64,000 bases of DNA from a virus (IMGVR_UViG_3300024999_000034:32001-96000), one strand, 5' to 3'. Positions 25,154 through 42,814 are shown, numbered from the stretch's first letter. Translations and numbers: made by a program. The notes: a model not told the origin generated them from the letters alone.

Positions 25154-25307
25154 AGTTAAAAATAATTATTCTAAACACTTTCAAAATAGAGAGTGGAAAT
25201 TAAGGCAAGAAAAAAGTATAATTGTAAGGGAATCAAAACTATCTTTTATCTCTTATTGCTTTTCTTGTTTTTATTTTTACCCTCTTAATTAAGAGGGGGA
25301 AAATAAA

Positions 25308-25565
25308 ATGACTAAAACAAAAATTAATCAATTATTTATTGAATCTTGTGATAAACTAATTGGAGAACTTGCTTACACAGATATGGTAAATCACAAAAAA
25401 ACATTATCTAAAGCAAAACAAAGAAATTATCAAGGAGGTTATTCACTTTCCGCAAATACTCAATACCTGCTAGAAACTAAAAAAGCGTATATAGCAGGAA
25501 CAATGAGTGAAGAGGAGTCAAAAGCTATATTCCTTCGACAAAAACTATGCGGAAACGTGCTATAA
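25308..25565 (+). CDS. hypothetical protein
   Basis: 85 aa; RBS within 18-bp palindrome 25280-25297. Confidence 0.65.
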   Translation: MTKTKINQLFIESCDKLIGELAYTDMVNHKKTLSKAKQRNYQGGYSLSANTQYLLETKKAYIAGTMSEEESKAIFLRQKLCGNVL

Positions 25566-25631
25566 CAAATTGTCTATAACAATCGTAGAGGGTAAACACA
25601 AGGACAAGGAAAGCAAAATTAAAGGGATTAA

Positions 25632-25667
25632 AAAAGACAATTCATGGTAGTTGAAGTGTCTTTTTCT
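25632..25667 (+). terminator. intrinsic terminator
   Basis: AAAAAGACA...TGTCTTTTT. Confidence 0.65.
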
Positions 25668-25747
25668 AAATTATATCATAATAATTATTAAAATATGGTA
25701 TAATTTAGAAAGGACATTTAAGTCCCTAATTTAAGGAGGTTTTTAAA

Positions 25748-26101
25748 ATGACTAACAAAAAATGGTTTTGTACTCCTGATGCTGAAACGAGAAAAGGAAT
25801 TGCTGGTTATAGATTTTACCTGTCAATGAAGAAAAATTATGAGCCGGATGTCGAACTTTCTCCTTCGCCTTGGGTTCATGCTGAAGCTTTGGAGTCTAAA
25901 AATGATTTTTTCTTTACTTCGCGTGATATTGCTTATCCAGAAATTACGAAACGATTAGGAGAAGTAGAAAGATTAATATTACATCCTTGTTATGTATGTA
26001 ATATTACTTTTGACGAAAAACTACTTTACCCTGTTGTAAATGATAATGACGAAAAAACAGGGGAACATATTTGCCATGAATGTCTAAATAATGACGACTA
26101 A
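25748..26101 (+). CDS. hypothetical protein with C-terminal Zn finger
   Basis: CYVC...ICHEC; AGGAGG RBS. Confidence 0.7.
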   Translation: MTNKKWFCTPDAETRKGIAGYRFYLSMKKNYEPDVELSPSPWVHAEALESKNDFFFTSRDIAYPEITKRLGEVERLILHPCYVCNITFDEKLLYPVVNDNDEKTGEHICHECLNNDD

Positions 26102-26203
26102 ATTAATTAACCCTTAAAATTGGTTGTAAGTGTACGCAAGTTAAACATGCTATAACAAATGCTTGCGTATAGTTGGGAATCAATTATTAAGGAGTGGTAT
26201 TAT

Positions 26204-27505
26204 ATGAAAGAAATGCTAGTAAAAACTTTCGGAATTGTGGGTTTAGTTGGTCAACTAAAATCTGGTCAAATCAACAGGGATGCTGAAATGCAAAGATCGT
26301 TTGTGTGGGGTAACAAGGAGCAAACAGACTTAATTGATTCTGTTTTTCAAGCTCTAACAACTTATATCCCTCCCTTGATTGGTGCTGAAACTGAGGTTGA
26401 AGTTGAGGTAAAAGGGAAAATCGAAAAAGTCATTGACCTTCTTGACGGAAAGCAGCGCAGTACAACCTTGGAAAAATTCTTGAATGATGAAATAAAGTTG
26501 GGCCATAACATTCGGCCTGTTGTCATTGAGAATGAAGACGATACTATTGAAACTTACATAGTTGCAGGGAAAAAATGGAGCGAATTACCGGACAGAGCAA
26601 AGCAAGTTTTCAAGAATTGTAAGATCCAAATGGTTTATTTTAAGGACATGACACAACAGGAAAGAGAATTGCAGTTCATCAAACTCCAGGGAGGGAAGAA
26701 ACTAAGTAATGCAGAAGTAAACAAGGTTCGCATTGGTGATGAAGTCAGAACATTTATCTATAAGCAATTAGCAACAGATTTATGGACTAAATTCATTAAT
26801 GTTTCTGCAAACCGCGAGGTTAAATTTGAGACAATGCAACAAGTACTAATGGTTATGACTAATTCCTTTGACTTATCCGGCAAATCATTACAAGCATTTT
26901 CAGAGGATTCTATCATGGTCGATGCTGAAACCATGGTAAAAGTTGAGAGAGTCACGGAATACCTAAATGAAGTTGTAAAATTCATTAAAAAATTCTCTTT
27001 ACCTACTGAACTTCAAAAACTTGAAGAATCAGAAGTAATCATCAAACTCGAACCTAAAGAGCTTAAAAAGTATCAGAAGCCTATAGAATATCTTAAGAAG
27101 GTTCATGTCTCAGTTATCTATAACACGGCACTCAAGGCCATTCTGAACGATATTAGCGCAAAGGATTTTGCTAAATTTGTTGCTAAATTCTTCTTTGATG
27201 TTCCTGCAAGGTATAAAAGATATACAGAATCAGATACTTCTAGTGCATCAAGTGGGAAAATTAGAATTGAGGAAATGGATAAGGCACTGGTCAATGAGTT
27301 CAAAATTGTGGCAAAGGTTACTGAAGTAAAAGTTGAAGAGGTTCAAGATGTTGAGCCAGTAATTGAGCAATGGGAACAACCTTTACAAGTTGAAAACCTC
27401 GAATCTATCATAACAGATGAACCTGAAGAGTTCGGCAATAATGAAGAAGATAAGCAAGACGCTCAATTAATTATTGATATTACAAATAATTCCAATGTTG
27501 CTTAA
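26204..27505 (+). CDS. DUF262 (GmrS-like, ParB/Srx fold) protein with acidic tail
   Basis: MQRSFVW...LIDSVF...IPPL...LLDGKQRSTTL...FIKLQGGKKLS; no HNH/DUF1524 part seen. Confidence 0.8.
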   Translation: MKEMLVKTFGIVGLVGQLKSGQINRDAEMQRSFVWGNKEQTDLIDSVFQALTTYIPPLIGAETEVEVEVKGKIEKVIDLLDGKQRSTTLEKFLNDEIKLGHNIRPVVIENEDDTIETYIVAGKKWSELPDRAKQVFKNCKIQMVYFKDMTQQERELQFIKLQGGKKLSNAEVNKVRIGDEVRTFIYKQLATDLWTKFINVSANREVKFETMQQVLMVMTNSFDLSGKSLQAFSEDSIMVDAETMVKVERVTEYLNEVVKFIKKFSLPTELQKLEESEVIIKLEPKELKKYQKPIEYLKKVHVSVIYNTALKAILNDISAKDFAKFVAKFFFDVPARYKRYTESDTSSASSGKIRIEEMDKALVNEFKIVAKVTEVKVEEVQDVEPVIEQWEQPLQVENLESIITDEPEEFGNNEEDKQDAQLIIDITNNSNVA

Positions 27506-27512
27506 TTAATCC

Positions 27513-27770
27513 TTGGTAGTTTTGAGCTTATGCGTTAAGATAATAACAAGGCTTAACGCATTGTCGGAAAAATTTAAAAGGAGCTGTATTATTATGTCTA
27601 ATAATTGTTTTGTTGCAATTGTAAGAACATACAATGATAATAGTAAAGAGTATGTTCTTACGACAAAAAATGATTATGAGAAAGAATCTAAAATTAAAGA
27701 CTTTAAAGAAGAATTGTCTTATTTTAAAACCTATATTGAGGCATGTGACTATATTTATTCTTTAAGTTAA
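27513..27770 (+). CDS. hypothetical protein (start probably about 27594)
   Basis: AAAGGAG before internal ATG. Confidence 0.55.
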   Translation: MVVLSLCVKIITRLNALSEKFKRSCIIMSNNCFVAIVRTYNDNSKEYVLTTKNDYEKESKIKDFKEELSYFKTYIEACDYIYSLS

Positions 27771-27818
27771 TTTTCCGTTTAAATCATGTCTTTATGGTAT
27801 TAAGTTTTTAGAATAAAT

Positions 27819-28076
27819 TTGAAAGTTGGAAATCAAATGAAAGAATTTAATTACTTAGGACTTACTTTTAAACCGTTGAGAACTCTAAAGGGTAAATCGT
27901 CTGATTTCTTTGCAATATCAAAAAAACTAAATGATATTAAAATTACTCCTAAAAATTGGAATCATACGGAATTTTATAAATCAGCAGAACAAAACGGAGC
28001 AGGAGAAATTGACTTATTTGAGGTAAATGGGTTAGTGGTTATTCCTTGTCAAAATTGTTTGTTTCAATATAAATAA
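27819..28076 (+). CDS. hypothetical protein
   Basis: 85 aa ORF. Confidence 0.6.
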   Translation: MKVGNQMKEFNYLGLTFKPLRTLKGKSSDFFAISKKLNDIKITPKNWNHTEFYKSAEQNGAGEIDLFEVNGLVVIPCQNCLFQYK

Positions 28077-28128
28077 CTAGTATATATGTCCTCAGAGCGT
28101 TTCAGCCATAACAAAACAGGTTGAAACG

Positions 28129-28359
28129 TTGTCGAGGGTATATAAATTAAAGGAGTCGAAACAAATGAAAAAGTGCAATATTTGCAATGACCATTTTGAC
28201 GATCAATTTATTTCTCAATTCGAGACATTAACCTACACCAAAAAAGTTCTTCAAGTTTGTTTCTATTGTAAAGAAGATGAGTCAGAATATGACGATGGCG
28301 AAGAAATGGAGTGTATCAGGCAAGGTGATTCAATTTATTATCCTTCCCACTTGCTATAA
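28129..28359 (+). CDS. small Zn-finger protein
   Basis: CNIC...VCFYC. Confidence 0.6.
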   Translation: MSRVYKLKESKQMKKCNICNDHFDDQFISQFETLTYTKKVLQVCFYCKEDESEYDDGEEMECIRQGDSIYYPSHLL

Positions 28360-28462
28360 CAAAAGCTTTAATTATTCTCTAGGTCGTGATATAATGTAAA
28401 TATAAATATTACGGCTTGGAGAGTATTTAAGACTCTTCAAAATTTAAAGAAGCGTGTTACAT

Positions 28463-30355
28463 ATGACCAAATTATTATTGAATGACCAACTAAAAGGAGT
28501 AGAACTTTATTTTGAAGGAAAGCCATCACAAACCATCATCGACAGTTTAAAAAGCAATGGTTTTCGTTATCATGGTGGAAAAGTTTGTTGGTATGCAAAA
28601 CAGTCTGAAAAAACTATGGCAGAAGCTCAAAAACACACTTTAGAGCAAGGAACAGAACAAACACAAGTTAAACCATTAACACTCGTTACACCAGTGGTTA
28701 AAGCACAAAAGGAAGTAAAAAATAATATTATTCTTCCTTTGTGGGATCTTACACAATGGTCAGATATTCAAGTTGACAACAAACAAGGCACAAAATCAAT
28801 TGCATCAGAAATGAGAAAGCATGTCAGGACTCGTTTCCCTATGTGTAAATTTTCAATCACTAGTGACTATTCCAGTGTTTCTTTCTATATTGTTGCAAGT
28901 CCTTACGATCAAGAAAGTGAATATTTAAAAGCGATAAGGTTATACTGTGATAACTTAATCAAAGCTTATCGGTATTGTACTTGTGACGATCCATACGGAG
29001 ACTATGGAAGTTCATATAATTTTTATGGTTCTCATACCTCAATTGATTACCATTACAAGCAAACTGAGCAAACAGCAGAAATAAAATCTGATATGTTAGA
29101 CTTTGATGCTAAAAAAGCATTGGAAGAAACTAAAGTAGAAGAACAAAAGGAAAAGGATTATCAATTGTATTTAGTTCAAAAAGAACTAGACAAAAAATCC
29201 TATGAAGAATCAGCTAAGAAAGAAGCCGAACAAGTTCAAACTATCAATGCTAGTATCTCTATAACAGACTTAGCAAGAGAACAGCAATACTTTGTAATTG
29301 GTTCACAGTTTGCACACTTGAACAAGAATAACACCTTAGACCAATATAAAGAGGACGTAGAAAAAGGCGAATTCTATTTACAAAATGTCAAGATTACAAA
29401 AGAAATCCATTTCCAAACTGAAGAAGCTCTATCCTACTTCTCTAACATGTTGCTTAATGATTTTGATTTTCTTGCCGAAACTGGTGGAAGTTATACAGAC
29501 GATGTTCGTATTAATTCCATGACGGATTATAACAACATGACTGAGGAAGAGCGCAAAACTGTTGTATTTAATCTTTATGGAGTCGGAATTTACTATAACA
29601 ATGAACTCAAATTCGTTGTGGACGCTCAAGGCCATTCATACGCCAGATATGTTGGGTTAATTGAAAATGTTACCATTCAAAAATCTGACAATGTAGATCA
29701 ATTAGTTAACCATGAACAAATAAAAGAATTAAAGGGAAAAGTTGAAACCCTTGAGGATTTATCAGTTGAAGCAATAACTTGTAATCCTTCTTTAGTTGGA
29801 ACATGGGACAAAGAGAATTGGAACGAATACAAAGACAGGATGAAACAGATTTTCAATAAAAACTATTTTAAATTAACCAAGTCTATCATTCAGCAAATAC
29901 CTGAAGAGTCGGAAACCTTAAAAGGTTGTATGTATAGACTGCTCAAGGAAGTTGATGGAATTCAGGAACAGTTTAGGAATGCAGACTTGAAGCAAGGCCA
30001 GAAAGTAACATTATTCTATATTACTGATTTTGGAAGCGTAGCAAATCAAATGGTAACGCTCGATAGTGTTGAGTATACTAAATACGCGCAGTATGATAAT
30101 GCAGTAAAATTGACTTGGATACCAAAAGGAAAAAGGAAACAGTATTACAATTTCTTTTACAGCACTTTGTTAGTTTATGAGGGATGGTTAGAACTTCCTC
30201 AAAGTGTTCTGCATGAAGTGAGCGAATCTAATGATTTTGTCATAACAAAAACTAAATATTTGAGCTGTGATAAAAAGCAGTATGACGAGATTTTAGACCA
30301 TTATGAAGTACAGGGACTTAAACCAGTGATAAATACCTATAAACCTACATTCTAA
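28463..30355 (+). CDS. large polyvalent protein (LPD25/LPD29-like domains)
   Basis: GVELYFEGKP...LKSNGFRY...CWYAK and RKHVRTRFPMCKFSITS...YGDYGSSYNFY patterns. Confidence 0.6.
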   Translation: MTKLLLNDQLKGVELYFEGKPSQTIIDSLKSNGFRYHGGKVCWYAKQSEKTMAEAQKHTLEQGTEQTQVKPLTLVTPVVKAQKEVKNNIILPLWDLTQWSDIQVDNKQGTKSIASEMRKHVRTRFPMCKFSITSDYSSVSFYIVASPYDQESEYLKAIRLYCDNLIKAYRYCTCDDPYGDYGSSYNFYGSHTSIDYHYKQTEQTAEIKSDMLDFDAKKALEETKVEEQKEKDYQLYLVQKELDKKSYEESAKKEAEQVQTINASISITDLAREQQYFVIGSQFAHLNKNNTLDQYKEDVEKGEFYLQNVKITKEIHFQTEEALSYFSNMLLNDFDFLAETGGSYTDDVRINSMTDYNNMTEEERKTVVFNLYGVGIYYNNELKFVVDAQGHSYARYVGLIENVTIQKSDNVDQLVNHEQIKELKGKVETLEDLSVEAITCNPSLVGTWDKENWNEYKDRMKQIFNKNYFKLTKSIIQQIPEESETLKGCMYRLLKEVDGIQEQFRNADLKQGQKVTLFYITDFGSVANQMVTLDSVEYTKYAQYDNAVKLTWIPKGKRKQYYNFFYSTLLVYEGWLELPQSVLHEVSESNDFVITKTKYLSCDKKQYDEILDHYEVQGLKPVINTYKPTF

Positions 30356-30433
30356 CGCTTATAACAGCCATTCTATGCAGTTTGTGAAGGTTCTGCCATA
30401 ACAAAAACCTTCAATACATACTAGGAGGGCAAA

Positions 30434-31882
30434 ATGAAAAAATGGGAAAAATTATGTTGGGATAGTTTACCGAGAAAAGGCAAATATATTGATTGGAAAA
30501 ATACTGTTGGAATGACATTGAAGGGTGTGTATAACAAACTAAACTTTGAAATATTGATAATTAATTATAATATTGTTTATCGAGTATTAACTGTTAAATA
30601 TTTAGATAAAGAAACCTATGATATTAGTGCAAATGGTTTTATTAGATGTCAATTAGGGGAATATTTGTTTGACAGAAGCAAACATAAAAGAAAAGTAGGA
30701 GATATATTTATAACAAATACGGGTGAACAATTGGAAATAACAGAGTGCTTTGAAAAGTATAATTATAAAACACAACTTTATCGTTCAAAATGGTATAAAT
30801 ACAGATGTTTAAATTGTACATATGAAGGAGAGATTATTGAGGGTAATCTGACTATTGGGCAAGGATGTTCTTGTTGTAGCAATTCTAAAGTAATTGTAGA
30901 GGGCATTAATGATATTCCAACTACTGCTCCTTGGATGGTAAAATATTTTCAAGGTGGTTACGATGAAGCAAAATTATATGTTAAAACTACCCATAAAAAG
31001 ATTAAACCTATATGCCCCGACTGCAATAGGATAAAAAATAAGGAAATGGGAATATATAACATCTATAGGAATCGTTCAATAGGATGTTCTTGTGGCGATG
31101 GTATTAGTTATCCCGAAAAGATTATGTATTCAGTTTTAGACCAATTAAATATATATTTTTTTACTCAATTAAATAAAACCATATTAGATTGGTGTGAGGG
31201 GTTTAAATATGATTTTTATATTCCTTCTCCAAGCAGTATAGTTGAGACACATGGTAAACAGCATTATGAGGAAATTTCAAGGAAATCAAAAACAACATTA
31301 ATTCAAATTCAGAAAAATGATAAAAATAAAAAGGATTTGGCATTATACAATGATGTGGATAATTATATAATTATTAATTGTAGATATTCCGAACTAAATT
31401 TTATTAAAAATAATATATTGAATAGTGAATTATCTAGTATGTTTGATCTAACTATTATAAATTGGAATAAATGTGAAGAATTCGCTACAAATAATTTAGC
31501 AAAAGAAATATGTAAATTTAAAAACAATAATGAGGTCTTATCTGCAAATAAGATTAGTAAAATATTTAAAATTGGTACAACTACAGTAACATCCTATCTT
31601 AATAAAGGTACTAAATTCGGATGGTGCAATTACGATGGCAAAGAAGAAATGAAAAGAAGTGCTTTTAAAGTTGGTAAATTAAATTCTAAAAGAGTTGAGA
31701 TTTTCAAAGATGGCAAAAGTATAGGGATATTTAAAAGTAACAACGATCTGGAAAGACAAAGCGAAGAATTATTTGGAGTTAAATTATTAAATAGTGCAAT
31801 ATCGGCAGTTTGCAGAGGGAAAAGACAATCTCATAAAGGTTATTTTTTTAAATATGTAGAGGAGGTTGTAACAAATGTTTAA
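30434..31882 (+). CDS. Zn-ribbon + PD-(D/E)XK-like + NUMOD1 putative homing endonuclease (paralog of 5516-6910)
   Basis: CLNC/CSCC/CPDC, KYDFYIP...VETHGKQHY, C-terminal SHKGYFFKY. Confidence 0.65.
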   Translation: MKKWEKLCWDSLPRKGKYIDWKNTVGMTLKGVYNKLNFEILIINYNIVYRVLTVKYLDKETYDISANGFIRCQLGEYLFDRSKHKRKVGDIFITNTGEQLEITECFEKYNYKTQLYRSKWYKYRCLNCTYEGEIIEGNLTIGQGCSCCSNSKVIVEGINDIPTTAPWMVKYFQGGYDEAKLYVKTTHKKIKPICPDCNRIKNKEMGIYNIYRNRSIGCSCGDGISYPEKIMYSVLDQLNIYFFTQLNKTILDWCEGFKYDFYIPSPSSIVETHGKQHYEEISRKSKTTLIQIQKNDKNKKDLALYNDVDNYIIINCRYSELNFIKNNILNSELSSMFDLTIINWNKCEEFATNNLAKEICKFKNNNEVLSANKISKIFKIGTTTVTSYLNKGTKFGWCNYDGKEEMKRSAFKVGKLNSKRVEIFKDGKSIGIFKSNNDLERQSEELFGVKLLNSAISAVCRGKRQSHKGYFFKYVEEVVTNV

Positions 31883-33476
31883 AGATATTAAAGACTTCTA
31901 TCCCACTCCACAGCCACTAATTAGAAAAATGCTAGAGAAAATAGACTTCAAAATGGTTTCAAGTATTCTAGAAAATTCAGCAGGTAAAGGAGATTTGGCA
32001 GACGCTATAATTGAGAAACTAAAATATGCTCATAGTTCATATTATAACCGCGAAGCAAAATGGGATCTCGATTGCATTGAGGTTGATGAAAACTTACAAC
32101 ATATTCTAAGAGGAAAAGGATATAGGGTAATTCATGATAACTATTTGACTTTTGAAAGTTTCAAACATTATGACGCTGTGATAATGAACCCTCCATTCAG
32201 CACAGGAGACAAATTTTTACTAAAAGCAATTGACATGCAAAAAGATCAAGGTGGAATTATTGTGTCATTGCTCAGTGCTGAGAACCTAAAAAATCCATAT
32301 ACCAATATTAGAAAAGACTTAGTACAAAAACTAGAGGATTATAACGCTGAAATCGAATATATTCAAAATGCTTTTATTGATTCAGAACGCTCTACAATGG
32401 TTGAGGTAGCACTAATATATGTCAACATTCCAAAAACTGAACAGTCATCTATAATTCTAGAAGGATTAAGGCAACAAGAAGTATTCCGCGAGGAAGTCCA
32501 TAACAGCGGTAAAGTGGTCAATGCAGACTTTTTAAAAGGAATAGTCCAGAAGTATAATTTTGAAGTCAAAGCAGGACTAAGATTAATTGCAGAATATGAA
32601 GCAATAAAACCATTTATACTATCTTCTTTTAAAGAAGATAGTAGTAACACAATTCTAAATTTAACTGTCAACGATAAAGATGGAAATTGTTCAAAAGAAA
32701 ATTCTTATATTAAACAAGTCAGAATGAAATATTGGCTTGCACTTTTCACCAATGAGGAATTTATGAGTCTATTTACATCAAATCTAAGGGAAAAATATAG
32801 GTCTAAAATAAGTGAGCTTAAAGACTACGATTTCAGCCTCTATAACATTTACACCATTAAAATTCAGTTAAACAACGAAATGGTAAAAGGGGTAGAGGAT
32901 ACTATTTTAAATCTATTTGAGCAATTCAGCCATAAGCACCATTGGCACGATGAAACATCAAAAAATATACACTACTTCAATGGTTGGAAGACTAATAAAG
33001 GTTGGAAAATTAACAAGAAAGTTATTATTCCTTTACATGCTTTTAACGACTATAGTGGAGAGTTTCAACCAACTGATTATAAAATTGTTGATAAACTAAC
33101 CGACACGGAAAAGGTTTTCAATTATCTTGATCAGGGAGCGACAGAGGATGTAAATATTAAAGAAACATTGAAGTTTGCTGAAGGATATGGAGACACAAAG
33201 AAAATACCACTAAAATATTTTACTGTCACATTCTATAAGAAAGGTACTTGCCATATTGAATTTACTAATTTGGATTTGCTACATAAGTTCAATTTGTTCG
33301 GATCACAAAGAAAAGGTTGGTTGCCTCCTTCATATGGAAAATCAAATTATAAAGATATGACAAAGGAAGAAAAGACTATTATTGATGAATTTGAAGGAAA
33401 AGATTCCTATGCTAATGTCATGAGCAACAAAGACTATTTTATAGTCGAGACTTCTAAGTTGTTAATGTTGGCTTAG
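31875..33476 (+). CDS. N6-adenine DNA methyltransferase with DUF4942
   Basis: DFYPTP, ILENSAGKGDLAD, IMNPPF, C-terminal FYKKGTCHIEF. Confidence 0.85.
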   Translation: MFKDIKDFYPTPQPLIRKMLEKIDFKMVSSILENSAGKGDLADAIIEKLKYAHSSYYNREAKWDLDCIEVDENLQHILRGKGYRVIHDNYLTFESFKHYDAVIMNPPFSTGDKFLLKAIDMQKDQGGIIVSLLSAENLKNPYTNIRKDLVQKLEDYNAEIEYIQNAFIDSERSTMVEVALIYVNIPKTEQSSIILEGLRQQEVFREEVHNSGKVVNADFLKGIVQKYNFEVKAGLRLIAEYEAIKPFILSSFKEDSSNTILNLTVNDKDGNCSKENSYIKQVRMKYWLALFTNEEFMSLFTSNLREKYRSKISELKDYDFSLYNIYTIKIQLNNEMVKGVEDTILNLFEQFSHKHHWHDETSKNIHYFNGWKTNKGWKINKKVIIPLHAFNDYSGEFQPTDYKIVDKLTDTEKVFNYLDQGATEDVNIKETLKFAEGYGDTKKIPLKYFTVTFYKKGTCHIEFTNLDLLHKFNLFGSQRKGWLPPSYGKSNYKDMTKEEKTIIDEFEGKDSYANVMSNKDYFIVETSKLLMLA

Positions 33477-34004: not shown

Positions 34005-34402
34005 TTCCAACGAAATACGAATTTCTTGTGAAATGAAAGGAAGTTTTAAAATGGATAAATTGACATTAATGTGTAATAATTGCTATGAAGTAGTTGTGAA
34101 TTGTGGCGAAACTCCTATTGATTGTCCTCATTGTGGATCAATAGAAACATGGGTTTTAAAAATCCCTATGAAGGAGAGTGTTAGAAATGCTAAATAAATC
34201 AAAATTAACCAAACACCGCAAGTATATCAAGAAGCGTAAAAAAGTTTGGATTGCTTTATATGGATTGCCTTATCCGGTTAAACAAAATTATAGTCCTATT
34301 ACTTATCTATAGGTCAATCAATGCAGAGTGGTAGAGCGTAATAACAATCAACGCTCTATTAATGCACAGAGCAGGTCACAAGTCCTGCTCAGATGCTAAA
34401 TA

Positions 34403-34882
34403 TTGAGGAGAGTGTACATAATGGCTAAAAGAATTATGAATGAGGTTAAAGTTTTTGTAATACGTTCTCAAAGAGATAGTTCCATCAGAGGCGAACGCGT
34501 TTTCTTAAACGAGCAATACGCAAAAAGTTTAGAATACGATTGTACTTATTTAGGTGGAGAGGATGTATATATAGATTCTATAACATTACCTTTTGTCGGC
34601 AAGCATGTTTCATATGTAGATGTATACAGAGGTTTTGACTATGATTACCCAGGAATGCATGATGCGGTTTATAAATCTGAATTATATCCATCTATTGAAC
34701 AAGCAAAATCAAGCAGAGCATGGAAACAAATCGAACAAGAGGTAGCAAAAGATCCTGAAGAATTCAATGTTTATCAAGATAAAATTTGTTCAAAGGATTA
34801 TGGTGGAGAAGACTGGTATTATGGAGATGTCATGGAAGGAAAGGTTTCAGCAAAAATAAAAAGGCTAAAAGTTATTCATTAA
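34403..34882 (+). CDS. hypothetical protein (start probably 34421)
   Basis: GAGGAG RBS. Confidence 0.7.
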   Translation: MRRVYIMAKRIMNEVKVFVIRSQRDSSIRGERVFLNEQYAKSLEYDCTYLGGEDVYIDSITLPFVGKHVSYVDVYRGFDYDYPGMHDAVYKSELYPSIEQAKSSRAWKQIEQEVAKDPEEFNVYQDKICSKDYGGEDWYYGDVMEGKVSAKIKRLKVIH

Positions 34883-34986
34883 ACCTTGCAGAAGACAACC
34901 GCAATATAACAATAACAATCATGCGGTTGTAATGCACCAGCGCACGTTCCAAGTCGTGGCAGGATGCTAAAGAGGAGGTTAAATAT

Positions 34987-35172
34987 ATGCATATTAATTT
35001 AGTTCTAAATGATGAACAAACCAATTCAATTAAACAATCTTTATTTTCTGTATTATCTACTGGAGAATTAGCAGGTACTTTGTTTTCTAGAGTTATTACT
35101 GATAAATTCAATACCAATGAAAGCAAAGAACTAAAAACTGCATTAATTAATTTTTTAAGGTCTATTGAGTAA
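34987..35172 (+). CDS. hypothetical protein
   Basis: GAGGAGG RBS. Confidence 0.65.
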   Translation: MHINLVLNDEQTNSIKQSLFSVLSTGELAGTLFSRVITDKFNTNESKELKTALINFLRSIE

Positions 35173-35274
35173 CTTCCCATGAAACTTACATTTCCAAGGC
35201 TCTAGCATCCACCACAATCCTTCCATAACGCACGCACGTATGCTATACTTGTAATAACAGAAGGAGGTATCACG

Positions 35275-35418
35275 ATGCAGGTATCACTAAATACTAGAAT
35301 CGAATTAGAATTACGTCAAAGACTAGACACTCATATCAAAAAAGTGAACCGTCCAATAGCTCAAATAGTTGCAGAAGCTATTGAAAAATATTTAGACGAA
35401 AAGGAGAAAAAAGACTAA
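35275..35418 (+). CDS. ribbon-helix-helix DNA-binding protein (not in ORF track)
   Basis: AAGGAGGT RBS; MQVSLNTRIELELRQRLDTHIKKVNRPIAQIVAEAIEKYLDEKEKKD. Confidence 0.75.
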   Translation: MQVSLNTRIELELRQRLDTHIKKVNRPIAQIVAEAIEKYLDEKEKKD

Positions 35419-35495
35419 ATTTTTATTGACGTATGCGTGCAAGCGTGATATATTGTTATTAATCTATTTGAATATTATTTATTAATTTAAAGGAA

Positions 35496-35768
35496 GTGCT
35501 AATTGTGTTTAGAGACGAAGAAGAAAAAGTAATGACTTCTAAAATCCAAAAAGTTAAACACACTATTAACAAAATCTTAGAGGGATGCGAAAATTGTCCA
35601 GAAGTCCAATATGGTTGGAGTGGTATGAGTATTGATGTATATTTATCTGGTGGTAGTTATCAAGTCAGAAATATGGTCGAAAGTCATTTCGTATACAGTA
35701 GAAAATATAGAGGGGTTGAAATATCAAATAATGACACCAAGAAACGCATTAGTTTTGTTCTTGCTTAA
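35496..35768 (+). CDS. hypothetical protein
   Basis: 90 aa ORF after promoter 35426-35454. Confidence 0.6.
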   Translation: MLIVFRDEEEKVMTSKIQKVKHTINKILEGCENCPEVQYGWSGMSIDVYLSGGSYQVRNMVESHFVYSRKYRGVEISNNDTKKRISFVLA

Positions 35769-35793
35769 ATCTTAAAAGAGGGAGTTTTTAAAA

Positions 35794-36111
35794 ATGAATG
35801 ATGAGAATTTAAGAAAAGCATGGAAAACATTTGGTTGGGATAAACAAAAACCAGAAGAATTTAAGGCAATTGGAACACCTGAATTTGAAGAAATGCTAAA
35901 AGAATCAAAAATTGAAAAAATGATCAAAAACCTAGATGTCACTGAAAAAGATGCAAATTATATCAAAGATTCTCTAGTAGAAATTCAAATGCATCCTGAA
36001 GAAATCCTGGAAGTCAAAGAATCTGGTCAATTTACTTCAGACGGAGACATAATTTACAAAGTGGTTTTAACCTTAGATGGAGACATGGAAAGATTCGTTT
36101 GTTATATTTGA
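35794..36111 (+). CDS. hypothetical protein
   Basis: GAGGGAG RBS. Confidence 0.7.
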   Translation: MNDENLRKAWKTFGWDKQKPEEFKAIGTPEFEEMLKESKIEKMIKNLDVTEKDANYIKDSLVEIQMHPEEILEVKESGQFTSDGDIIYKVVLTLDGDMERFVCYI

Positions 36112-36210
36112 GTGATTTGTAGATTAAAGCCAGAGATACAGGACTTTAAGCATAACAATAACAGTTCTATATCTCTCCTTTAGTCTATTAATTAGAAAGA
36201 AGGTCGTAAA

Positions 36211-36732
36211 ATGAAAATCAACGTTCTACACAGTCAACAAGATCCATTTTCCCAAACTATTCTATATGCTCCAGAACTTATTATTTCTGAAGCAATCCAC
36301 ATTGCTGAAAAATGTTTTCCTGCTGTAAGATTCTCAGAATTATATCCTCAAGAATATTTCTTCATTCTTGAAAGTGAAATCTGTCAATATGAAGAATATT
36401 CACGATATTCCAAAAAACCATCTATATACTCCTATTTTGGTGGGAAAGAAGAATTAGAAGTAAAATTCCAAGAAATGTATGAGAAGCAAATGAATAAATT
36501 AGGAGAATGTAAAATGGAAGATGCCATACTCATTAAAACCTACAATATTGGAGGCAAAACAACTGAACTACGTTTCACACCAAAAGCCAATACTCAAACA
36601 TGGCCAGGATATGATGACTCATTACCTTTACGCTATGCAGGATATTGGTATGGAACACATGACAACCATGAACACATTGGAAAGACAGAGAAAGAAGCAA
36701 TGGAATATCTTGCAGGAAATTATGGTATTTGA
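36211..36732 (+). CDS. hypothetical protein
   Basis: 173 aa. Confidence 0.65.
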   Translation: MKINVLHSQQDPFSQTILYAPELIISEAIHIAEKCFPAVRFSELYPQEYFFILESEICQYEEYSRYSKKPSIYSYFGGKEELEVKFQEMYEKQMNKLGECKMEDAILIKTYNIGGKTTELRFTPKANTQTWPGYDDSLPLRYAGYWYGTHDNHEHIGKTEKEAMEYLAGNYGI

Positions 36733-36946
36733 TTAATTGAATTTGGATTCAATACACCATAAACCTATAATCTCTATAACAATCGCGGTGTATTGATTCG
36801 AGGTAAAATTAGTTAAATTAAGGAGTGAAGGAAATGAAAAAATGTTTTACTTTTAATATTTTTGCTACCAAAGAAAAGGCAGAAGCGTATGCAAAAGAGA
36901 TTCACAAACGAAAATATACAATTAGTGAGACAACCGATAAAAGCGG

Positions 36947-37240
36947 TTGGATACTTGCTTATTATCAGTGGAATTGATTTACTTTAAATCAATAATTTTC
37001 TGGGAAATGAAAGGAGTTTTATTAATGGAGAAGACTAAAGAACAGCACTACACAGAAGTAATTAACAATATGCTTCAAAGAGAATTAGAAGATTTGAAGA
37101 CAATTGTTCGAGACGTTGAAAAGGTATTGAAAGCGGATCTAATGAGCATTGACAACAAAGCTATTAAAGTATTAGAGATTATGCAAATGGTAAGATTTAA
37201 TACAGAGATTCTTAGAGAACTTCAACAAATGAAAAGGTAA
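36947..37240 (+). CDS. hypothetical protein (start probably about 37024)
   Basis: AAAGGAG before internal ATG. Confidence 0.6.
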   Translation: MDTCLLSVELIYFKSIIFWEMKGVLLMEKTKEQHYTEVINNMLQRELEDLKTIVRDVEKVLKADLMSIDNKAIKVLEIMQMVRFNTEILRELQQMKR

Positions 37241-37370
37241 ATAGGGCACTCAAAGCCCTTCCAAGCATCCTTGCAACGCTCATAACAGCATAACACCAAA
37301 CACTTGCAGAGCAAGGGGGTTTAGAAGAGTTCTGAAGACTCTATAAATAAAATCTAAGGAGGAATGTAAA

Positions 37371-37694
37371 ATGTATAAATGTGAATGTGTAAGATGTGGA
37401 TGGACAATAACCAATGATGACAGAGAAGAAATTATTCAAATTATTAAAGAAGGTGGTGGAGAGTATAAGGAATATGAATATTCAGAATGTCCTAGTTGTA
37501 TGCTTGACGGTTTGGATATTAGTCTAATTCCTGAATTAAATTTAAGCGAAAGCTTTAAACCAATTAAGTGTAAAGACTGTAATGAAGAATTTTATATTGC
37601 AGATGGCGAAAGAAAATTCTTTGAATCGAAAGGATTAAACTTACCAGTGAGATGTCATTTTTGTAGAGATAAAAGAAAAAATTATGCACGATAA
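37371..37694 (+). CDS. Zn-ribbon protein (zf-trcl-like CxxC-x17-CxxC)
   Basis: IKCKDCNEEFYIADGERKFFESKGLNLPVRCHFCR. Confidence 0.75.
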   Translation: MYKCECVRCGWTITNDDREEIIQIIKEGGGEYKEYEYSECPSCMLDGLDISLIPELNLSESFKPIKCKDCNEEFYIADGERKFFESKGLNLPVRCHFCRDKRKNYAR

Positions 37695-38009
37695 ATAAAC
37701 TACACTATCTAAAGAGCTTATGCTCTTTGCTCAGTCCTTGTATAACAAAACTCAATATAACAGTGGGTATACAAGGGTTGACCAAAGGATATAAACCTAA
37801 TCGATATATCCTAAAATAAATAAAGGAGGAGGAAACAATCATGAATTTAAAACTACTCAAGGAATTCAAAGCAATTTGTGCCGAACATCCTCAAGTCCCT
37901 TTTACTATGGATGCTTTCGAAAAATTCATTGCTCATATTTCCAAATAATCTACATATTCTATATCATCTAACCAAATCACTAAATAAATTTATGAAAGAA
38001 GGTATTCCA

Positions 38010-38294
38010 ATGCAAAAACCTAAAAACATGAAAAACTTAACTCATTCTGCTTCAAAATTAAATATCCTATACTTAGGCAAAGAAATTGTTTACACTGGCG
38101 AAGGTCACTCTCTAAAGCCTTACAGGGGAGAAATCATCAACATTGCTTACTACTCAAACCTTGAACCTGTTCCATATGCCGAGATTAAACTTAAAATCTG
38201 GAATAACCGGACAGTAACTAAGATCATGAAGTTATCTGATGTTGTGCTAGTATCCTCTATTAAGAAATCAAAGAAATCCAGAGTAGCAGCTTAA
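38010..38294 (+). CDS. SH3-like hypothetical protein
   Basis: AGAAGG then MQKPKNM; track ORF over-extended at 5' end. Confidence 0.55.
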   Translation: MQKPKNMKNLTHSASKLNILYLGKEIVYTGEGHSLKPYRGEIINIAYYSNLEPVPYAEIKLKIWNNRTVTKIMKLSDVVLVSSIKKSKKSRVAA

Positions 38295-38457
38295 TTCAAT
38301 ATCTTTTATATGGACACTGTATGATGTAAAATAATTATAACAATTGATGCCAATACGTTGTACAGTGTAATTCTTAAAGGATATTGTATAAATACAAACT
38401 ATCAATTAAATATCTCATTTTCACTATAACAAATCAAGTTAGGAGGTTGGAGCCACA

Positions 38458-38718
38458 ATGTCAAAATCAAAAGTATCAAAGTCAAATCATGAAATAATTT
38501 ATATCATTGCAAAATCTAAAGGATTCGTATATAATGGAGAAAATATATTTACATATGCAGACTGGTTAGCAAAAGGTTTTAGAGTAATCAAAGGTGAAAG
38601 AGCTTTCTCTACAACCAACTTATGGACCAAAGGAATCAATCGAAGAAAAACTTTGCAAAGTATTTTTACTATTGATCAAGTGGTTAAAATTTATACTAAG
38701 GAGTTGATTATGGTATAA
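38458..38718 (+). CDS. ArdC-like ssDNA-binding domain (stand-alone)
   Basis: FTYADWLAKGFRVIKGERA...IFTIDQV. Confidence 0.65.
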   Translation: MSKSKVSKSNHEIIYIIAKSKGFVYNGENIFTYADWLAKGFRVIKGERAFSTTNLWTKGINRRKTLQSIFTIDQVVKIYTKELIMV

Positions 38719-38890
38719 TTTCCATAACAATTCCACTTTAGAATCACAAGGAGGTTAATATGACATATAAATTCAAGCAAGCAATTGTAAGTCAAGATCA
38801 ATATGTTTATGGTTTTAGATTTTATCTATCAATTGTGAAGTGGTATAGATAATCCATCAAACTAAATTAAATTATTAGGAGGAATTAAAA

Positions 38891-39262
38891 ATGATGCTAA
38901 CTGAAACTAAAATTGACCAAATGAGAAGAGATGTTTCCAGAATGAATCAAGCAACTGAATTCTTTATGTGGTATTCTGAAGAATATACACAAGAATGTAT
39001 TAAAAATCAAACACAACGTCCCAACATTATGATTATTAATGAAAAACCTTATCTAGTTTGTGGCTTAAGTTATTCAATTATGGAAATTCCTAAATGGTGC
39101 TATAGAAATGATACTAAATTTATTGGTGTAATTCCTAAAAGACTTCCTACATATCTAGATTTAGGAAATGATGAATCATATTCTAAATTGTTTGAAGATG
39201 CTTATAACAATTCTCATGTTACCGAACCAGTAAATGGAATTATAGAAAGGTTGTGTAATTGA
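38891..39262 (+). CDS. hypothetical protein
   Basis: AGGAGG RBS. Confidence 0.7.
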   Translation: MMLTETKIDQMRRDVSRMNQATEFFMWYSEEYTQECIKNQTQRPNIMIINEKPYLVCGLSYSIMEIPKWCYRNDTKFIGVIPKRLPTYLDLGNDESYSKLFEDAYNNSHVTEPVNGIIERLCN

Positions 39263-39651
39263 TGGAATTAGGCAATATTGTAAAAACCAAAGATCAAAGA
39301 CAAGGTAAAATTGTTCAAATTCAATTATCTTTAACTAGTAGAAAAATTTATGTAGTAGAATTTACTCAAAATGTTAGTGATGGATTTTTTGAGGAAGAAC
39401 TTGAGTTGGTTGACAATACTACAGTTTGGTATGATGTATTTGAAGCAATACGAGAATTATACAGGGATAAAAGCAAGAAAGCAGTATCGAAGAAAGGAGA
39501 AATTAAGTGGATAGAAAGGACTCTAGACAATATCTCAAAGGATAAGGTTAAAGACCTTGTATATATCAATGTGAATGGATTCGAGCATAATATACTTAGA
39601 GATATTGTGTTAGAATCATTGAACTTCAATATATGGTCTATTGTTGAGTAG
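39259..39651 (+). CDS. protein with N-terminal KOW/SH3-like barrel
   Basis: LGNIVKTKDQRQGKIVQI...YVVEF...FFEEELELV. Confidence 0.55.
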   Translation: MMELGNIVKTKDQRQGKIVQIQLSLTSRKIYVVEFTQNVSDGFFEEELELVDNTTVWYDVFEAIRELYRDKSKKAVSKKGEIKWIERTLDNISKDKVKDLVYINVNGFEHNILRDIVLESLNFNIWSIVE

Positions 39652-39728
39652 AAATGTCATTTATGATATAACAGTTTGAGTTCTGAGGCTCTAGAGGATT
39701 TTTAATTAAATTAATTGGAGGAATAAAA

Positions 39729-40136
39729 ATGAAAATTGATAAAGCAAAGTTTATAGAACAGTGCGTAGAATCAAACGAATGTATAATTGAAGAATTCCAT
39801 GATTATTTTGAAGTAGTCTCTTGTAATTGTAAATACGAAAATTGCGAAGGTTGGCAATTGATAACAAAAGAAAATGCATTTGAAAAATTGCGAGATAAAG
39901 TATTGAATAATAATTTAAAAATCAAGTTAAACAAATTAGGATTTAAATCAGTTTTAATTGAAGAAGATAATCTAAATAATATCTATGTAAAAGTGTGGTT
40001 CAATTTTGAAATGAATGGTAAAATACATTCAGATGGTAGACATGAGTTTTGCGATATTGGAAATTCAGAAGAAACATTGAATTATATTATTAAGTGGATT
40101 GATGATAAGGAAAAAGGATTTAAGGTAATTTTGTAA
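39729..40136 (+). CDS. hypothetical protein
   Basis: GGAGG RBS. Confidence 0.7.
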   Translation: MKIDKAKFIEQCVESNECIIEEFHDYFEVVSCNCKYENCEGWQLITKENAFEKLRDKVLNNNLKIKLNKLGFKSVLIEEDNLNNIYVKVWFNFEMNGKIHSDGRHEFCDIGNSEETLNYIIKWIDDKEKGFKVIL

Positions 40137-40178
40137 ATTCTATATCCTTCGAATCTATTATTTCCAAGTATTCTAAAT

Positions 40179-40697
40179 TTGAAGGAGCGTGTATTTATTA
40201 TGAAAAGACTATGTATTAACTATGAATTTGAACAAGAGATTCCAAAAGAAATACTCAAGGATAAAAATGTATACACTAGTGAAATCGGCTTTATCATTGT
40301 AAAAACTGAATACAAAAAGAAGTTTGAAAAGAAGTACGATATTCCATTAACAGACTTTTCAGAATGGTTTACGAAAAGATATAGTGAAACTAAAACGATT
40401 CATGAATTAATTTATGAAATATTAGAGGATGAACCACTTCTGAAGGATGAATGGGTAGAGCAAGATTTTACTGATAAATATTCTTCAGAAATGATTAAAT
40501 CAACACTCAATAAATTATCTTTTATGTCTGATGATAAAATTATTGAGTATATTTTAAGTTACAAGTTGGAAGAAGCATTGAAAATTGTTATTAAACCCTT
40601 TATAATGAATGAATCAATCAAAAAATATCAAGAGCGTGTTAAGGGTTTAGAAGATCAATATCGTATTGATTATTATAAGAAAATTACTGACCTTTAA
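40179..40697 (+). CDS. hypothetical protein
   Basis: 172 aa, AAGGAG before internal ATG. Confidence 0.65.
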   Translation: MKERVFIMKRLCINYEFEQEIPKEILKDKNVYTSEIGFIIVKTEYKKKFEKKYDIPLTDFSEWFTKRYSETKTIHELIYEILEDEPLLKDEWVEQDFTDKYSSEMIKSTLNKLSFMSDDKIIEYILSYKLEEALKIVIKPFIMNESIKKYQERVKGLEDQYRIDYYKKITDL

Positions 40698-40891
40698 AAA
40701 GCAAGGTTTATTGGAGTTTAAATAAGAAAGGAATTGAATATTAATGGAAATTTTCAAAATCAAAGACATTGATTATTGTTCTAAATGCCCATATAAAAGT
40801 AAATAACTCTGGTTTGAGCCAGTATAAAAAAGTATCTTAAGCTTGGTATGGTTGTTTAACTCTGTTAGGTGGTATAACAAATAACAGGAGG

Positions 40892-41074
40892 ATGATTAAA
40901 ATGACAAATTATGAAAAAATTATGAACATGAGCATTGAAGAATTTGCAAAAACTAGAATCAATTATGATCCTGAGTGGGGCGAATATGGAAATGATATTT
41001 CAGGTAATGTATATGTATACGAAAATGATGCAATTGAAGATGAAATTAAATGGTTAAAACAAAAGGTAGAATAA
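40892..41074 (+). CDS. hypothetical protein
   Basis: GGAGG RBS. Confidence 0.65.
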   Translation: MIKMTNYEKIMNMSIEEFAKTRINYDPEWGEYGNDISGNVYVYENDAIEDEIKWLKQKVE

Positions 41075-41138
41075 CGATGTCTAATACTATCAAAAGTAAA
41101 TTTTAAATGTATATTTAAAAGAAAGAAGGAATTTAATT

Positions 41139-41708
41139 ATGACAACTGTTAATTTTAAATCTCTTAATTGGAAAATTGATGAGAGAACACTTAGAGGGGA
41201 TGGGAAATATAATACTGAAAAAGCAACAGTAGAAATTCAACTTCCAAATGGGGATTGGAAAATTTTTAGAAGTTATTCTCTTCATCGTGGAGCAAGTGTT
41301 GAAACGGATAATATTTGGAATCTTCTTATTCTTGATGGAAATTATTCCAAACATATTAATGTTGGCACTCTTGACAATGGCAAACAAATTACGGAAGAAG
41401 ACTATCGAGAATATATGCATAATTTATTTAATGGCATGACACAATATATTTTGTCTAGTGATTCAATTAATAATGTGGATGATGATAATAAATATTGTGA
41501 AGTTATCACTGAACATTTTGGAATTAAAAGAGAATATGAAATAACAAGATGTTCTACACTTGAAGAAGCAATAACAAAAGCAATGGAATTTTCTGATAAA
41601 ATTAAAAAGGTTTTTCATAGTCAAGATAGGGTATTTGTAAAAGTTGGTAATCTTTATTATAACCCTAACAAATTATTTTCAAATGGTATAGGTGTTTCTT
41701 GGATTTAA
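41139..41708 (+). CDS. hypothetical protein
   Basis: 189 aa. Confidence 0.7.
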   Translation: MTTVNFKSLNWKIDERTLRGDGKYNTEKATVEIQLPNGDWKIFRSYSLHRGASVETDNIWNLLILDGNYSKHINVGTLDNGKQITEEDYREYMHNLFNGMTQYILSSDSINNVDDDNKYCEVITEHFGIKREYEITRCSTLEEAITKAMEFSDKIKKVFHSQDRVFVKVGNLYYNPNKLFSNGIGVSWI

Positions 41709-41843
41709 TTTAAATTAATCTGTGCTAGTGATTTAATCTCATATCTTATATAACAGAGTCAATATAACAGATGCAGTTATAACATAGATATGGGATTATA
41801 TTATAGCATTGGTTGCTAAAAATAAAATTAAGGAGAAATTGAA

Positions 41844-42035
41844 ATGAAAAAATTAAATGAGATTCAATTAGAAATCCAAAGACTTGAAAGGGAAAATGAT
41901 ATTAATAGAGACAGGTTAGAATATTTTGAAAAATTAGGGGACATGGATAGAGCAAAAATGTACACAAAAATGATTAGTAATTGTAGTATAAAGATTGATA
42001 CTCTTGGATGGGCAATTGATTACAAATATTTATAG
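41844..42035 (+). CDS. hypothetical protein
   Basis: AAGGAG RBS. Confidence 0.65.
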   Translation: MKKLNEIQLEIQRLERENDINRDRLEYFEKLGDMDRAKMYTKMISNCSIKIDTLGWAIDYKYL

Positions 42036-42096
42036 CTTAAAATGTTATTTTCATTTGGTCATTTTTACCATAACAGCCGACCATATTTATTGCATG

Positions 42097-42252
42097 GACT
42101 TTTTAAACTATACGTTATTCGTATAGTTAATATCCTAAGTCACAAATTGCGACTTTAAAAAGACGAATATCGTCTAGTAGATTAACGCTACCCAATATTG
42201 GGGAACGTCTTCTAGTAGTTCAGAAAATGCTTCGTATGTATTACGGACGAAG
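42097..42252 (+). ncRNA. multi-hairpin structured element
   Basis: Five to six adjacent stems in 155 nt (see findings). Confidence 0.45.
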
Positions 42253-42564
42253 TAAAATAAAATATAAAGGATGTGAATAACAATGACACAAATACAAATT
42301 AAACATTCTTGTTGGTTCTGCCTCAATTTAGACTGCGATCATATAGAATATAAATCATGTCTCAAGAACCATAAACTTAAATTTATTTTCAATGTAAATG
42401 AATGTTCAGATTGGAATGGTTAATACTAATATCCAAGATATGGTATAACAGATTCAATATTATCTTTCCAACTTTGTTTTTATATTTGATTTAAAAACTA
42501 TTGCAATTTATTCCAAATGTGATAAGATGTAACTAAGAAATAAATATTTAAGGAGTGGTACATA

Positions 42565-42777: not shown

Positions 42778-42814
42778 TATCCCAGAAAAGGCAGAATTGA
42801 AAGGAGTTTGAATA

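Follow-up and report, generated by a model that had tools for sequence, protein, structure and literature searches.

A strand-specific ATAACA word marks a predicted accessory operon of an uncultured SPbeta-like phage and is avoided in antisense to its essential genes

Here we describe a short asymmetric word, ATAACA, that is concentrated on one strand of a 64,000-nt stretch of viral DNA (the window; bases 32001-96000 of the 180,838-bp IMG/VR virus record IMGVR_UViG_3300024999_000034). The word forms a dense + strand array over a predicted operon, where it occupies the loops of conserved intergenic hairpins, recurs in two predicted Twister-P5 ribozymes and lies within genes, and its complement is avoided in the sense strand of the divergent essential genes. 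We tentatively favour a reading in which the AUAACA word is a tag at the RNA level, read by a trans-acting and probably host-encoded factor to the advantage of the RNA that carries it. Coordinates are window positions unless stated otherwise, gene calls are based on open reading frames (ORFs), the source phage is labelled G000, and related IMG/VR contigs are labelled G001, G002, G004, G005, G006 and G008.

The whole record holds 79 copies of ATAACA on the + strand and 94 on the - strand, and 56 of the former lie at 24983-42951, a segment for which an order-3 Markov model predicts 18 (z 8.8). A scan of all hexamers placed ATAACA at the top for clustering by region (15 kb hold 47 of the 79 copies, p 1e-39), with a gap of about 20 orders of magnitude to the next hexamer unrelated to it (p 1e-18). 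The conserved extended word is c-y-ATAACA-R, and its domain is as follows.

24983..42956, + strand: c-y-ATAACA-R domain, 56 copies, 34 not fully within a gene and 22 within genes

Hand-curated intergenic DNA of the array (3,357 nt) contains 32 copies, compared with 2.7 +/- 1.7 in 500 shuffles (maximum 10), and just 2 copies of the reverse complement. This 12-fold, strand-specific enrichment bears out the initial annotation, which had proposed about 18 intergenic hairpins with unrelated stems and a shared AUAACAA loop. Its motif stands as ATAACA, although position seven can be G as well as A (R at +6 in 242 of 297 array copies). Its statement that all copies are intergenic and sense fits the 32 copies in intergenic DNA and fails for 22 of the 56, which lie in coding sequence in two reading frames. 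The signal is thus not confined to loops; the whole operon is tagged, coding sequence included. No base is conserved at a fixed distance on either side of the word, and no -35-like element was found on either strand.

At least six related contigs, recovered by protein and 14-mer searches of IMG/VR, carry the same strand-specific arrays.

G001: 26 copies in 9 kb
G002: 13 copies in 1.2 kb, one small operon
G004: 112 copies in 21.5 kb
G005: 43 copies in 16 kb
G006: 30 copies in 11.5 kb
G008: 30 copies in 11.8 kb

In all array-bearing phages the two arms diverge, and the array lies on the accessory one. Word density within genes equals intergenic density in G004. The G002 array lies between terminator-like hairpins; there the word, mostly ATAACAGC, occurs 13 times in a two-gene operon (L012 3100-4350, - strand) coding for an Ntn/class-II-amidotransferase-like protein, with copies inside that gene in two reading frames. 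The hexamer-clustering scan found no such array in Bacillus phage BUCT082 (genus Spbetavirus), the closest cultured relative, whose polymerase is 48.5% identical.

The source phage is an uncultured SPbeta-like phage with a YonO-type RNA polymerase; its record is ~30% G+C and 85% complete. The left arm (- strand, genome 1-45 kb) codes for the portal, structural proteins, an exonuclease, PhoH/PIN, a UvrD-like helicase, a DnaD/HTH initiator and a 941-aa RdRP-fold (YonO-type) RNA polymerase, and the right arm (+ strand, 45-181 kb) holds small genes by the hundreds. No near-identical DNA was found in phage and plasmid collections, and a search of GTDB genomes for prophage relatives, as a clue to the host, gave a single weak match, in a metagenome-assembled genome.

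The second strand of evidence, avoidance of the complementary word in the divergent block, is additional to the initial annotation, which was based on the window alone. The sense strand of the divergent replication, polymerase and structural genes was compared with synonymous-codon shuffles that preserve the protein and the codon usage of each gene.

G000: TGTTAT 3 observed, 17.2 expected; ATAACA 21 observed, 24 expected
G001: TGTTAT 1 observed, 21.2 expected; ATAACA 21 observed, 22 expected
G002: TGTTAT 2 observed, 18.9 expected; ATAACA 24 observed, 25 expected
G004: TGTTAT 8 observed, 20.2 expected; ATAACA 16 observed, 24 expected
G008: TGTTAT 5 observed, 15.7 expected; ATAACA 18 observed, 21 expected

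The word is therefore purged from the antisense strand of essential genes 2.5- to 20-fold in five phages. Of 1,413 testable hexamers in the divergent block, only AAAAAA is more depleted than TGTTAT, which comes ahead of restriction-like palindromes. The copies that remain on the array strand of divergent blocks have R at +6 in 9 of 31 cases, compared with 78 of 133 on the other strand. Since residual copies mostly lack R at +6 and array copies mostly have it, the same extended word is selected for in arrays and against in divergent blocks, which points to one reader.

Beyond the divergent block the pattern varies between phages. In G000, the + strand genes 3' of the array are 3-fold depleted in sense ATAACA (12 against 35 expected, rank 5 of 2,257), and the equivalent genes of G004 show no depletion (24 against 22).

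Two side observations belong here. AGATCT is absent from two gene blocks tested in the G000 genome (0 observed, ~24 and ~10 expected), and AGTACT, CTTAAG and GATC-containing words are likewise strongly avoided, which suggests that the phage meets BglII-, ScaI-, AflII- and MboI/DpnII-like restriction in its host. Separately, one of the five residual + strand ATAACA copies of the left arm falls inside an ORF-free stretch of ~950 nt (genome 24110-25060; L003 4110-5060, - strand) between a yonK-like gene and the next structural-arm gene, which matches the unannotated non-coding RNA described at the SPbeta YonO start site.

As the avoided word is the exact complement of the array word, flanking preference included, one explanation is direct pairing between RNAs. 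Multi-copy AUAACAR loops would pair with YUGUUAU in other RNAs, or would act as a sponge for a regulator RNA, and essential late and replication mRNAs would have purged the complement to escape pairing. The many copies in loops are what sponge RNAs and kissing-loop systems display, and in some of the leader cassettes described below a loop ACAAU could, by eye only, pair with an upstream AUUGU. We nevertheless regard this explanation as improbable. A duplex of 6-9 bp would be weak without a chaperone, most copies lie outside loops, and the downstream accessory genes of G000 and G004 do not avoid the complement (50 observed of 53 expected and 25 of 29, respectively). A partner RNA that displays UGUUAU in a loop was looked for without success; intergenic + strand TGTTAT mostly starts extended -10 promoters (TGTTATAAT). 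Such copies 3' of the array lie at window 50526, 50882 and 98203 (genome 112526, 114882 and 162203), and non-coding TGTTAT counts partly reflect promoters because most copies are of this kind.

The third strand of evidence is structural. About 14 of the proposed hairpins are convincing, and in their loops the word occurs singly or in pairs; a weak one lies at 40862-87, and at six further sites listed as weaker copies the word is present and the stems are poor. Stems are mutually unrelated and mostly 7-13 bp long, and loops span 7-45 nt. Hairpins begin 13-42 nt past the upstream stop codon, as expected of 3'-end structures. Across six phages, stems scoring at least 8 enclose 19% of word copies, compared with 7.3% for permuted control words (2.6x), and array intergenic regions fold better than downstream ones (mean z -2.05 and -0.91, p 0.02). 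The hairpins outside the predicted ribozymes are listed below.

26131..26171, + strand: hairpin, 10-bp stem, word in 21-nt loop, 5' of the GmrSD_N-domain gene
27530..27561, + strand: hairpin, 10-bp stem, 12-nt loop with ATAACAA
28096..28130, + strand: hairpin, 12-bp stem including two G-U pairs; outer helix CCTC/GAGG plus TATATA/TATATA
30385..30413, + strand: hairpin, 8-bp stem, word in loop; second word copy 24 nt 5', at 30361
33666..33702, + strand: hairpin, word twice in loop
36132..36176, + strand: hairpin, stem of ~14 pairs (G-U and A-C positions included), word twice in or at the edge of the loop
36749..36796, + strand: hairpin, 10-bp stem, 28-nt loop, then TTCGAGG
37269..37318, + strand: imperfect hairpin, ATAACAGCATAACA in loop
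37736..37776, + strand: hairpin, 9-bp stem, one word copy in loop and one at stem edge
38314..38368, + strand: hairpin, 8-bp outer stem, 39-nt loop with word; kept in G006
41734..41798, + strand: hairpin, 13-bp stem (G-U pairs), three word copies in 39-nt loop

Because the stems cannot be aligned and the loops range over 7-45 nt, the hairpins were compared between orthologous sites. At orthologous intergenic sites the loop word is kept and the stem is replaced or altered. Just 5' of the GmrSD_N gene, G000, G001 and G008 each have a stem unrelated to the other two around the same loop word; at the G006 orthologue of 36749 the stem is entirely different and the word is still there in two copies; and the G001 orthologue of 37269-37318 has an 11-bp stem with the same double word. 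Where stems can be followed base by base, the changes preserve pairing: GAAGGTT/AACCTTC at 30385-30413 becomes AAAGGTT/AACCTTT in G001, the outer helix CCTC/GAGG at 28096-28130 becomes TCTC/GAGA in G001, and a G-U pair of the same hairpin becomes A-U in G006. The hairpin at 37736-37776 differs in G006 by one change, which gives a U-G pair on the + strand. All three single substitutions create or remove G-U pairs on the + strand, and none gives A-C. The sense-strand, single-stranded character that the initial annotation had claimed for the hairpins is supported. Judged by these substitutions, the hairpins are a structure selected on the sense strand in single-stranded form; together with the ribozyme matches described next, this makes RNA the natural reading.

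Some hairpins form the inner part of a longer leader cassette, which runs TTGTAT, 6-8 nt, hairpin, TTCGAGG or GTCGAGG, 12-20 nt and ribosome site (AAGGAG). It occurs at window 28074-28160 (the hairpin at 28096-28130 being part of a cassette that extends to the ribosome site) and 36725-36835, at L144 ~7350-7460 and ~8740-8850, and at L148 ~80-190 and ~1420-1530. It lies 5' of unrelated genes, like a movable element, and its outer helix has one compensatory change. A few elements reach ~22 bp as two-tier stems, for example 28074-28155. The cassette is perhaps a structured RNA of no described class, or else a site of the RNase III type.

The initial annotation did not recognise the motif family. 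Two of its hairpins nevertheless match a described one, Twister-P5.

34322..34387, + strand: Twister-P5 ribozyme (RF02684, 57.1 bits, E 1e-9, gathering score 37.6); its stem P1 is the ATAACA hairpin 34332-34358
34887..34958, + strand: second Twister-P5 ribozyme (RF02684, 46.8 bits, E 4.6e-7); its stem P1 is the hairpin 34895-34930, with the word twice in the loop
40808..40874, + strand: weak pistol-like match (RF02679, E 0.93, 24.4 bits where the gathering score is 34.5), which we do not count as a ribozyme

Both Twister-P5 matches cover model positions 1-58 of 58, and cmscan aligned the core strands (GCAGAG..., UAAUGC and the CAAG loop) with high posterior probability; in the first copy, one consensus position after UAAUGC is a gap. 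On the strength of these alignments the two hairpins are stem P1 of Twister-P5 ribozymes, with self-cleavage predicted in both at the U-A step directly 3' of P1. G008 holds an orthologous Twister-P5 (L148 2248-2310, 58.6 bits). A twister-P1-like element in G004 (L138 11424-11487, - strand; identical to L053 9266-9329) scores 53.7 bits with E 3e-9, below the gathering score of 67.2 for that family, and its stem P3 is built from two overlapping ATAACA copies. The remaining ~12 hairpins matched no Rfam family: a scan of 23000-44000 with E up to 10 for other ribozymes (pistol, hatchet, twister-sister, hammerhead) gave just the sub-threshold pistol match, which ends at the start of a double word copy (40874, 40881). 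At the gathering threshold, Rfam gave no match on the relative stretches L009-L011.

Predicted self-cleavage beside the word raises the question of whether the word itself is cut. A phage MazF-like toxin or a host RNase might cleave at AUAACAR and so silence the early operon, much as T4 RegB acts on GGAG. A short single-stranded motif is the typical MazF-type format, and the word is commoner than expected in early transcripts, with a 3-fold depletion in the downstream genes of G000. We rate this the least probable of the alternatives considered. Sense copies in essential genes stand at expectation in five phages, where a destructive site would have been purged, and cleavage would give no reason for the antisense purge. 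In addition, G004 shows no downstream depletion, and two of the hairpins already have a predicted twister cleavage site next to them.

Three features lie within 500 nt of the start of the array: a terminator-like site, a promoter-like site and a leader with a boxA-like element.

24168..24191, + strand: terminator-like hairpin plus T run, closing the preceding + strand unit
24500..24528, + strand: sigma-A-type promoter-like site TTGACG-17-TAAAAT at the operon head, a consensus match only
24666..24679, + strand: boxA-like element GCTCTTTGAAAACT in a ~370-nt leader

The terminator-like hairpin is the sole + strand site of its kind found in 24000-43900, and within the array neither sigma-70-type promoters nor terminators are enriched above shuffles. 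The 10 kb of co-oriented genes 5' of the array contain 2 copies of the word. Between the promoter-like site and the first ORF, the leader (24540-24890) comprises nested stems and the boxA-like GCTCTTTGAAAACTGAATAAA, which we take to resemble boxA of Firmicute rRNA operons. The element is restricted to the leader. An identical element heads the G008 array, and the 14-mer occurs with 0-1 mismatch at the array head in G008 and G006; copies with 2 mismatches at the array heads of G001, G005 and G002 may arise by chance. The leader looks like an rRNA-operon-type antitermination leader placed on a phage operon, and these features suggest that the tagged region is one early accessory operon of ~18 kb without intrinsic terminators. 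The initial annotation had likewise placed its hairpins between the cistrons of one long operon, and that arrangement is supported.

Could the word itself be a promoter? A YonO-like polymerase might read ATAACAR, or TGTTAT on the template, exposed as a single strand when a hairpin extrudes, in the manner of N4 virion polymerase hairpin promoters or of the AACA-containing late promoters of AR9, and copies firing in antisense would have been purged. AACA is the core of AR9 late promoters. Comparisons with N4, AR9 and TcdR-type promoters and with T4 RegA served us only as leads. Intergenic copies do lie 30-110 nt 5' of start codons, and avoidance is strongest where a rightward start would yield RNA antisense to essential genes. 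We consider a promoter very improbable all the same. Arrays accompany two polymerase lineages that are only ~25% identical (G001, G002 and G008 on one side, G000 and G004 on the other), and BUCT082 has none despite its closer polymerase. As noted above, nothing is conserved at a fixed downstream distance and no -35-like element accompanies the word; 56-112 promoters per 20 kb, many of them within genes, would be implausible; the operon has its own sigma-A-like promoters and boxA-like element; and a start within P1 would yield a truncated, inactive twister. SPbeta YonO, moreover, transcribes its late operon from one start site (PMC5467207).

The polymerase module is itself mosaic. The YonO-like RNA polymerases of G000 (genome 28335-31160; L003 8335-11160, - strand) and G004 are 71% identical although these phages have few other genes in common, whereas G001, G002 and G008 share many genes at 60-90% identity with G000 and differ in the polymerase.

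Several further candidates were set aside. For an AR9-like bipartite promoter, or an opposite-strand -35 read by a TcdR-type sigma factor, there is no conserved base at fixed spacing, and no sigma-70 domain was found in the phage. Integron attC sites, which have a conserved R''/R' core (RYYYAAC ... GTTRRRY) at the stem base, do not fit a conserved word in the loop with unrelated stem bases, and no integrase lies in or beside the array. Evasion of Type III restriction is at odds with 79 + and 94 - copies and with an array that faces the opposite way to the rest. Type ISP evasion, HUH nick sites, rolling-circle single-strand-origin hairpins and a complement or mimic of the tRNA-Asn anticodon loop each either lacked their defining feature or explained a single observation.

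We then propose a model in which the word acts on RNA. The hairpins would segment the polycistronic RNA and leave a protective 3' hairpin on each upstream cistron, and their loops, being free of coding and pairing constraints, carry the highest density of a word that runs through the whole operon. A trans-acting factor would read the word on the RNA, and the carrier would gain through elongation, through anti-termination (for example against Rho) or through stabilisation. Under this model the word should help a long operon that contains many untranslated gaps and sites of self-cleavage, do no harm on the sense strand of essential genes, and be damaging on their antisense strand. The reader is probably host-encoded, because arrays occur with two very different polymerase lineages and share no neighbouring gene. 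The initial annotation had envisaged docking sites for a single RNA-binding protein. Among the array-bearing phages, no conserved phage protein that could be such a reader was found at the head of or beside the arrays, and the first operon ORFs are not conserved; this, together with a Bacillus-infecting relative that lacks the array, leads us to suspect a host factor. A 413-aa protein (16897-18138) that has no known domain recurs near three arrays.

Several observations weigh against this model. Only 19-28% of copies lie within hairpins, the predicted accessibility of the word is not special (0.665 compared with 0.646 for composition-matched controls, p 0.055), and the excess of G-T over A-C positions in strong stems is modest (22 to 12). 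Outside the twisters the hairpins are candidate cleavage sites, and the reader is a putative factor. Antisense copies are not depleted in the downstream accessory genes, so the model needs the extra assumption that antisense interference matters only for essential genes. In G000, finally, a single rule at the DNA level, namely no + strand ATAACA outside the array, covers two depletions at once, the antisense one in the divergent block and the 3-fold sense one in the downstream + strand genes.

These points lend weight to the most serious rival, a polar signal on one DNA strand, which we hold to be unlikely. A tracking machine would read ATAACAR as single-stranded DNA or as an asymmetric duplex; a helicase-nuclease with a Chi-like site, a replication or packaging motor and an orientation-dependent roadblock are candidates. 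In this scenario the cluster is where the signal functions, selection removes copies that arise elsewhere in the active orientation, and the hairpins are a separate RNA feature whose loops tolerate the word. Consistent with this, + strand ATAACA in G000 is depleted outside the array whatever the direction of transcription (5 copies against 14-30 expected at 1-45 kb, 16 against 47-87 at 75-181 kb), with the - strand at expectation. The use of two frames within genes, the equal density in and between genes of G004 and the unremarkable accessibility also suit a DNA signal, the phage codes for a UvrD-like helicase and an exonuclease, and a 7-nt strand-specific word has the format of Chi-type sites. 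On the other side, the same-strand genes 3' of the G004 array are undepleted, so that the single-strand rule is not general, and known Chi sites are enriched, not depleted, in the active orientation. The array starts at a promoter and boxA leader with no recognisable DNA landmark, and a DNA signal gives no role to the 12-fold intergenic enrichment in hairpin loops or to the word in variable parts of twisters.

Among the genes of the tagged operon are those for a GmrSD_N-domain protein, an LPD29 protein, an HNH/NUMOD-like protein, a Dam+DUF4942 methyltransferase and zinc-finger proteins. HNH/NUMOD-type endonuclease-like paralogues (30-40% identity) occur on both arms (5516-6910, - strand; 30434-31882, + strand), and DUF4379 zinc-finger/NUMOD proteins are found elsewhere in the genome too, which amounts to many homing-endonuclease-like genes. 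The methyltransferase, the GmrSD_N/ParB-like protein and LPD29 are of anti-defence or polyvalent-protein type, as is, by eye, an ArdC-like protein in a relative. If the RNA model is correct, the tag may help to express such genes fast and reliably on entry.

A more specific version of the RNA model, which we put forward as a speculation, is that AUAACAR is the cis-element of an undescribed host-factor-dependent system that marks whole transcription units for processive elongation or protection. The word would act as a 'self-tag' of phage early anti-defence operons, purged in antisense from essential genes and present even in the free loops of ribozymes. An equally new alternative would be a polar signal in single-stranded DNA, a type so far undescribed in phages of Firmicutes. 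We found no published account of the pattern. Should the RNA model hold, a 7-nt word would shape whole phage genomes with a measurable footprint, and its reader should be findable by pull-down. It would also suggest a role for bacterial twisters, whose biological function is an open question: they would serve as 'punctuation marks' of an early phage operon that is antiterminated, interchangeable with several other kinds, with the same word decorating their non-catalytic loops. The hexamer-clustering and codon-shuffle tests can be reused to look for similar tags in other phages.

Several known systems resemble parts of this one. Bacterial twisters (clan CL00120) are likewise known to cluster with other structured RNAs in phage-like DNA; compared with typical Twister-P5, the P1 loop here is enlarged to 11-18 nt and carries the operon word. 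The comparison with intercistronic processing in T7 and SP82, drawn in the initial annotation, is apt. The RNase III sites of T7 (R0.3-R1.3) and of SP82/SPO1 are also hairpins of unrelated sequence between the cistrons of a long host-transcribed early operon, and the hairpins here, just past stop codons, would similarly leave a 3' hairpin on the upstream message. RNase III sites of this type are imperfect duplexes of ~20 bp or more, and some hairpins here are two-tier stems of ~22 bp. The T7 and SP82 sites have no shared loop word, whereas here most stems are 7-13 bp, twisters do part of the job and cleavage is predicted only.

The protein-sponge RNAs CsrB/RsmZ (GGA) and CrcZ (AAnAAnAA) likewise present a short single-stranded word in many loops on unrelated stems. 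Those are small RNAs, whereas the carrier here is an 18-kb coding operon with 40% of copies in genes. The logo here contains no GGA, and the complement avoidance has no counterpart in these sponge RNAs. The Hfq/Crc CA motif invoked in the initial annotation fares poorly, as AAnAAnAA overlaps or adjoins only 58 of 297 copies.

With lambda N/nut and rRNA boxA the operon shares a boxA-like head, hairpins with a specific loop, a long terminator-free unit and a single orientation. A lambdoid nut site, however, occurs once per operon, has beside boxA a 15-nt boxB with a 5-nt GNRA-like loop, and is served by an arginine-rich N protein encoded downstream. Here the loops are 7-40 nt and the stems unrelated, and no N-like gene is conserved among the array-bearing phages. 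A tethered antiterminator of the lambda N type, another of the initial suggestions, sits uneasily with predicted ribozyme cleavage directly 3' of the hairpin, since the cut would sever the RNA tether. Finally, Chi (RecBCD/AddAB), KOPS/SRS and T7 Type III sites are also asymmetric words of 6-8 nt with unequal orientations genome-wide. The Chi, KOPS and Type III words are enriched or uniform in one orientation throughout the genome, whereas ATAACA is concentrated in a 20-kb unit and purged elsewhere, and its arrays, unlike those sites, sit in RNA loops and ribozymes.

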